A stretch of DNA of 64,000 nucleotides, from assembly GCF_017348835.2 (NCBI RefSeq), contig NZ_CP071375.1; one strand, given 5' to 3'. This document shows positions 24,721 to 24,751 of the stretch, in pieces. This DNA comes from Escherichia coli. GTDB lineage: Bacteria > Pseudomonadota > Gammaproteobacteria > Enterobacterales > Enterobacteriaceae. Numbering within the stretch: position 1 is the stretch's first letter; every line of letters starts with the position of its first letter. The position numbers were made by a program, and so were the translations under genes. The notes beneath the pieces were generated by a model. It was not told the DNA's origin. It searched no databases and saw only the letters and a program-made list of their open reading frames with translations.

Positions 24721-24751
24721 TTGACCTTCCCGTAAGGGGAAGGACTATGCT
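24721..24751 (+). promoter_or_regulatory. CueR (MerR-family) dependent cueO promoter
   Basis: ttgacc (-35) - 19-bp spacer containing dyad ccttccc-gtaa-ggggaagg - tatgct (-10). Confidence 0.75.

Follow-up and report, generated by a model that had tools for sequence, protein, structure and literature searches.

CueR is the Cu(I) sensor of the MerR family in E. coli, and it activates the copA and cueO genes (PMC5329002; PMC12510620). Activation of both genes upon Cu(I) binding is credited to Outten (2000), Stoyanov (2001) and Yamamoto and Ishihama (2005) in the later papers through which these works are quoted here (PMC5329002; PMC9396075; PMC8169799; PMC12510620). A copper response of a PcueO-lacZ fusion has been described, and the in vivo FRET signal of CueR–DNA binding was abolished in the absence of PcopA and PcueO, which were described as the sole pair of promoters that CueR targets (PMC9396075). 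CueR-dependent promoters are characterized by a 19-bp spacer, and the CueR dimer binds their dyad from the side of the DNA opposite to RNA polymerase. CueR bends and under-twists this spacer, which brings the -35 and -10 elements to a separation of about 55 Å, like that in a 17-bp promoter (PMC8169799), and apo-CueR keeps the DNA in a repressed shape (PMC5329002). The core operator, CCTTCC-N7-GGAAGG, originates from Yamamoto and Ishihama (2005), as quoted in PMC8169799. The CueR target used in the crystal and cryo-EM structures is the copA promoter (PDB 4WLW, 4WLS; PMC8169799). The cueO locus was listed, as yacC-yacK, among the CueR sites with a 19-nt spacer in a comparative genomics study of 2006 (PMC1526738).

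The element described here lies upstream of cueO in a 64-kb stretch of E. coli DNA, the whole of which is referred to as the window. It is virtually certain that this element is the sigma-70 promoter from which cueO, the gene of a periplasmic multicopper oxidase, is transcribed under the control of CueR. The anatomy of the promoter, its identity with K-12, its register relative to copA, its conservation and the identity of the downstream gene were established in this analysis, and the dependence on CueR and copper is taken from the literature. The DNA-distortion mechanism is also taken from the literature, where the structures were solved on the copA promoter and not on that of cueO.

Results

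The features of the locus are listed below.

24284-24631, minus strand: yacC (RefSeq annotation)
24721-24726, plus strand: -35 hexamer TTGACC of the cueO promoter (direct sequence reading)
24725-24743, no strand assigned: CueR operator, dyad CCTTCCC-gtaag-GGGAAGG, matching the core CCTTCC-N7-GGAAGG exactly
24727-24745, plus strand: 19-bp spacer TTCCCGTAAGGGGAAGGAC (direct reading; sigma-70 optimum plus 2 bp)
24746-24751, plus strand: -10 hexamer TATGCT (direct sequence reading)
24757-24796, plus strand: predicted 5' untranslated leader of cueO, from the usual distance between -10 and +1
24758-24760, plus strand: in-frame TTG
24785-24789, plus strand: ribosome-binding site AAGGA
24797-24799, plus strand: cueO start codon ATG
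24797-26347, plus strand: cueO coding sequence, 516-aa multicopper oxidase (RefSeq start; Tat signal MQRRDFLK; mature protein from residue 29)

The initial annotation had placed TTGACC and TATGCT, separated by 19 bp, at 24721-24751 upstream of cueO, and the coordinates, hexamers and spacing proved exact; the distance from the promoter to the cueO ATG at 24797 is 45 bp. A single inverted repeat was returned by the repeat finder in the 165-bp yacC-cueO intergenic region. Its arms, CCTTCCC (24725-24731) and GGGAAGG (24737-24743), are 100% complementary with 5 nt between them, and the CueR core is matched exactly, in agreement with the earlier description of a perfect CueR dyad. The finer reading of that dyad, given as ccttccc-gtaa-ggggaagg within the spacer, was correct as to its presence but not as to its limits: the repeat parses as 7-5-7 instead of 7-4-8, and the left arm reaches into the -35 hexamer, whose final 2 bp it shares. 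Such an overlap is typical, and at copA the operator has been noted to overlap the -35 by 3 bp (PMC8169799). The promoter scan of 24200-25200 revealed no sigma-70 promoter with 16-18 bp spacing, which fits the activator dependence of the cueO promoter. From the distance of 6-8 nt past the -10 hexamer, we infer that transcription of cueO starts at about 24757-24759. The literature search, which included PMC2760140, yielded no usable published transcription start of cueO, and a search of the papers for the literal sequence matched none of them.

The reference CueR promoter used for comparison was that of K-12 copA, TTGACC-TTCCCCTTGCTGGAAGGTT-TAACCT, which holds the only exact CueR core in its 12-kb stretch. 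Both promoters share the -35 hexamer TTGACC, the 19-bp spacer and the CCTTCC-N7-GGAAGG core at the same positions, and can be superimposed without gaps. Their first 11 bp (TTGACCTTCCC) are identical, and within the spacers TTCC occupies positions 1-4 and GGAAGG positions 12-17 in both cases. The two promoters differ in the central 7 bp (CGTAAGG in cueO versus CCTTGCT in copA) and in the -10 hexamer (TATGCT versus TAACCT). They also differ in the direction in which the symmetry extends beyond the core, which is inward in cueO (7-N5-7) and outward in copA (ACCTTCC/GGAAGGT).

The gene downstream of the promoter is cueO, as indicated by three independent lines of evidence, namely PDB matches, Pfam domains and the RefSeq product name. 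Residues 1-516 of its product align over the full length and at the level of identity with the CueO chains in PDB, in which the mature chains begin at residue 29, and the Pfam domains Cu-oxidase_3, Cu-oxidase and Cu-oxidase_2 were found in it. The match to the Pfam TAT_signal model (21.1 bits) was slightly under the cut-off of 22.7 bits. In the RefSeq annotation, the far side of yacC is occupied by speE and speD, and the next gene named downstream of cueO is gcd. Between the convergent cueO and gcd genes, positions 26428-26490 contain an inverted repeat, CTTATCAGGCCTAC / GTAGGCTGGATAAG, which resembles a REP/BIME element. The sole Rfam family reaching its gathering score in the window is the unrelated small RNA tp2 (RF02030; 10732-10845, minus strand, 103 bits).

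Over the whole yacC-cueO intergenic region, the window shows 100% identity to MG1655, the K-12 strain that serves as the laboratory standard of the species; therefore, the published experiments on the K-12 cueO promoter apply to this sequence without extrapolation. The 231 bp around the site were matched in 5,424 of 5,426 complete E. coli genomes, with 100% identity to O157:H7 strains. The cueR gene lies outside the 64-kb window and is carried by 5424 of the 5426 complete E. coli genomes, a distribution so wide that the source strain almost certainly has it as well.

The same 231-bp comparison identified 10 plasmid places in all. One of them is on the 255-kb resistance plasmid pTBE6_2_blaCTX-M-55 (NZ_CP154402.1; locus L084, 3880-4060), which carries a chromosomal cueO together with a truncated gcd; two transposase genes of ISVsa5 (IS10-like) flank this segment. 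On this plasmid, the end of the insertion sequence abuts the cueO sequence within the -10 hexamer (window position 24748), and both the -35 hexamer and the CueR dyad are absent. Therefore, expression of the plasmid-borne cueO, if any, must be CueR-independent.

The open frame that contains cueO starts upstream of the annotated gene, with the TTG at 24758. This codon is situated 7 nt past the -10 hexamer, approximately at the predicted +1, which leaves no room for a ribosome-binding site. It had been claimed that the promoter confirms the ATG at 24797 over the upstream start. The choice of the ATG is right, and the position of the promoter argues against the TTG, but the promoter alone is not proof of the ATG. 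The evidence for the ATG comes from the RefSeq start at 24797, from the ribosome-binding site, from the twin-arginine motif and from conservation. In the cross-species comparison, AAGGA preceded the ATG by 7 nt in 64 of 81 sequences, and the N-terminus M-Q/H/L-RR-D/E-F-L/I-K, which contains the twin-arginine motif, was kept across species. The open frame upstream of the ATG ranged from 9 to 213 nt among species. In-frame alternative starts in the leader are uninformative alone across species, while the conservation of the N-terminus and of the ribosome-binding site spacing is informative. Moreover, several PDB entries give CueO as a 516-residue sequence, which matches from residue 1.

The conservation of the promoter was followed in a set of one genome per species, comprising 80 loci that encode relatives of CueO (74-98% identity) in Escherichia, Citrobacter, Salmonella, Enterobacter, Klebsiella, Raoultella, Kosakonia, Kluyvera and other genera. 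The pattern TTGAC[CG]-19 bp-TAn[GC]CT was present upstream of cueO in 79 of these 80 other Enterobacteriaceae species. Every element-bearing sequence was matched by this pattern, which fixes the spacer at 19 bp, and the register of the operator was invariant in the 80 anchored sequences. With ungapped anchoring, the information content per position reached 1.97 bits in the -35 hexamer, 1.5 bits in the spacer and 1.8 bits in the -10 hexamer; the values for the 25-bp flanks of the element were 0.68 and 0.74 bits. The first five positions of the -35 hexamer were invariant, the sixth was C in 78 of the 80 anchored sequences, and TAnGCT at -10 was kept in 79-80 of 80. The half-site columns TTCC and GnAnGG were invariant or nearly so across genera, and the dyad centre varied freely; conserved half-sites with a free centre form the pattern that would be expected of a dimeric operator. 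The initial annotation had also assigned the site to the CueR-activated, MerR-type architecture. The 19-bp spacer, the exact core, the register shared with copA, the location of cueO 45 bp downstream and the occurrence of the element in 79 of 80 species all support this assignment.

The lone exception among the 80 loci was that of Intestinirhabdus alba (locus L074, NZ_WMJZ01000002.1), which has neither the CueR promoter nor the yacC neighbour. No CueR-like box was found in its region 1-1500, even when 3 mismatches were allowed. By eye, the upstream open reading frame at this locus resembles a methyl-accepting chemotaxis protein in its C-terminal part.

The right half-site (region 24737-24743) reads GGAGGG in 57 and GGAAGG in 23 of the 80 anchored sequences, the latter form being found in Escherichia and in a minority of Citrobacter, Raoultella and Kosakonia. 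Therefore, the perfect palindrome of the window represents the minority state. Spacer positions 18-19 are AC in the window and TT in most genera.

When 16 genera were aligned with gaps, conserved islands appeared at the CueR promoter and at the ribosome-binding site, and further conserved blocks adjoined yacC. Two of these blocks, AACGTTAGCAYAC and GCGACGAnnnTTATT, at 24659-24671 and 24682-24696, respectively, belong to the half of the intergenic region that is nearer to yacC. On the minus strand, the first of them reads TGnTAACGT, which is similar to an extended -10 element, and is possibly the yacC promoter. Extra sequence separates the -35 hexamer from the conserved TTTATT block (24697-24720) in Escherichia, C. 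amalonaticus, Phytobacter and, above all, Salmonella arizonae. The insert measures about 8-15 bp in Escherichia, C. amalonaticus and Phytobacter and about 55 bp in Salmonella. As a consequence of these inserts, the distance between the CueR promoter and yacC varies, with intergenic lengths of 140-200 bp.

The arrangement of the two genes raises the question of whether the CueR site also modulates the divergent yacC, so that the locus would be a bidirectional "divergon", the term applied to yacC-yacK by Permina et al. (PMC1526738). In 78 of 80 loci, the divergent gene next to cueO is yacC. Its ATG and the dyad are 93 bp apart, and the blocks conserved across genera, which may be the yacC promoter, are located 30-65 bp from the dyad. 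However, no second promoter with a 19-bp spacer faces yacC, the MerR mechanism works on the spacer of one promoter, and only copA and cueO are named as CueR targets in the surveyed literature. Taking both sides together, we consider regulation of yacC by this site unlikely.

A further explanation holds that the palindrome and the hexamers came to be arranged in this way by chance and play no part in regulation, and that cueO is driven by another promoter. Some components of the element are indeed commonplace. When up to 2 mismatches were allowed, the TTGACC/TATGCT hexamers at 19-bp spacing were matched 5 times in the window versus 4.4 expected; the hexamers and spacing alone are thus not significant, being no better than chance. 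Generic perfect inverted repeats with 7-bp arms are common too: the window contains 91 of them. For these reasons, the significance of the element rests on the specific sequence of the dyad, its register and its conservation. The 64 kb contain a single exact copy of the 12-base core CCTTCC-N7-GGAAGG, for an analytic expectation of 0.0044, and the core was found in 0 of 100 shuffles of the window. Relaxing the core to 2 mismatches added two further sites, both unrelated, intragenic and at the chance rate. The 22-base composite would be expected about 8e-9 times. Moreover, 79 of 80 species preserve the element and its register while its flanks drift, no other promoter-like site is present in 24200-25200, and published reporter and binding data support its function (PMC5329002; PMC9396075). 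A chance origin is therefore very improbable, and it is already refuted by conservation and the literature.

The dyad could also be the operator of another MerR-family regulator, such as ZntR, SoxR, MlrA or a GolS-like protein. A spacer of 19-20 bp with an internal palindrome is common to all MerR-type promoters, and a CueR paralogue with a CueR-type site exists in Salmonella (PMC1526738). The half-sites at cueO, however, match both the CueR core and the copA operator exactly, which makes this assignment hardly credible. The half-site sequences of the ZntR and SoxR operators differ from those found here, and E. coli is not known to have a GolS. That the inverted repeat is an RNA hairpin or intrinsic terminator, and not a protein-binding site, is practically out of the question: its G+C-rich 7-bp stem and 5-nt loop would suit such a structure, but no T-run follows the repeat on either strand, the terminator scan of 24200-25200 was empty, the repeat lies upstream of the predicted cueO transcription start and, as yacC and cueO are both transcribed away from it, no known transcript crosses it.

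Discussion

Transferred to the cueO promoter, the published mechanism of CueR would operate as follows. The 19-bp spacing, which exceeds the optimum by 2 bp, would leave RNA polymerase unable to engage both hexamers at once. A CueR dimer, whose gene has another chromosomal location, would occupy CCTTCC-N7-GGAAGG on the DNA face opposite the polymerase, and in its metal-free form it would hold the promoter in the repressed shape. The binding of Cu(I), Ag(I) or Au(I) would cause CueR to kink and under-twist the spacer, so that the distance and phase of the hexamers become similar to those of a 17-bp promoter and transcription is turned on. Transcription would then proceed probably from near 24758, and translation from the ATG at 24797.

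The element is already known as part of the Cue (copper-efflux) regulon of E. coli (Outten, 2000; Yamamoto and Ishihama, 2005). The copper-induction check of a cueO promoter fusion was likewise already done and reported in 2000-2005. The published work, to the extent that it is represented in the sources cited here, contradicts copper induction of a cueO fusion that survives deletion of cueR or mutation of a half-site. As a textbook element, the promoter carries little weight as a discovery. Its value is that of a positive control for sequence-only reading, in which the established promoter and operator were recovered to the base, together with the correct cueO start codon. The footprint further confirms, in compact form, the invariance of the 19-bp spacing and of the operator register across the Enterobacteriaceae.

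The variation in the right half-site may nevertheless have some meaning. Judging by the counts of the two half-site forms, the perfect palindrome could be a lineage-specific state, with asymmetry perhaps tuning the affinity of CueR, or how repression and activation are balanced, at cueO versus copA; separately, the CueR site might also influence yacC. We regard these suggestions as doubtful.

Compared with the K-12 cueO (yacK) promoter (Outten et al., 2000; Yamamoto and Ishihama, 2005), the promoter of the window is the same element, with no difference in the regulatory region; the difference lies in the strain, which matches O157:H7 genomes and not K-12. With the metal-responsive promoters of the MerR family, such as merT, zntA, cadA and pbrA, and with the HmrR sites, it shares the 19-20 bp spacer, the palindromic operator and activation by DNA distortion. 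It differs from the other promoters of this family in its half-site sequence, which is specific to the CueR/HmrR branch (PMC1526738).
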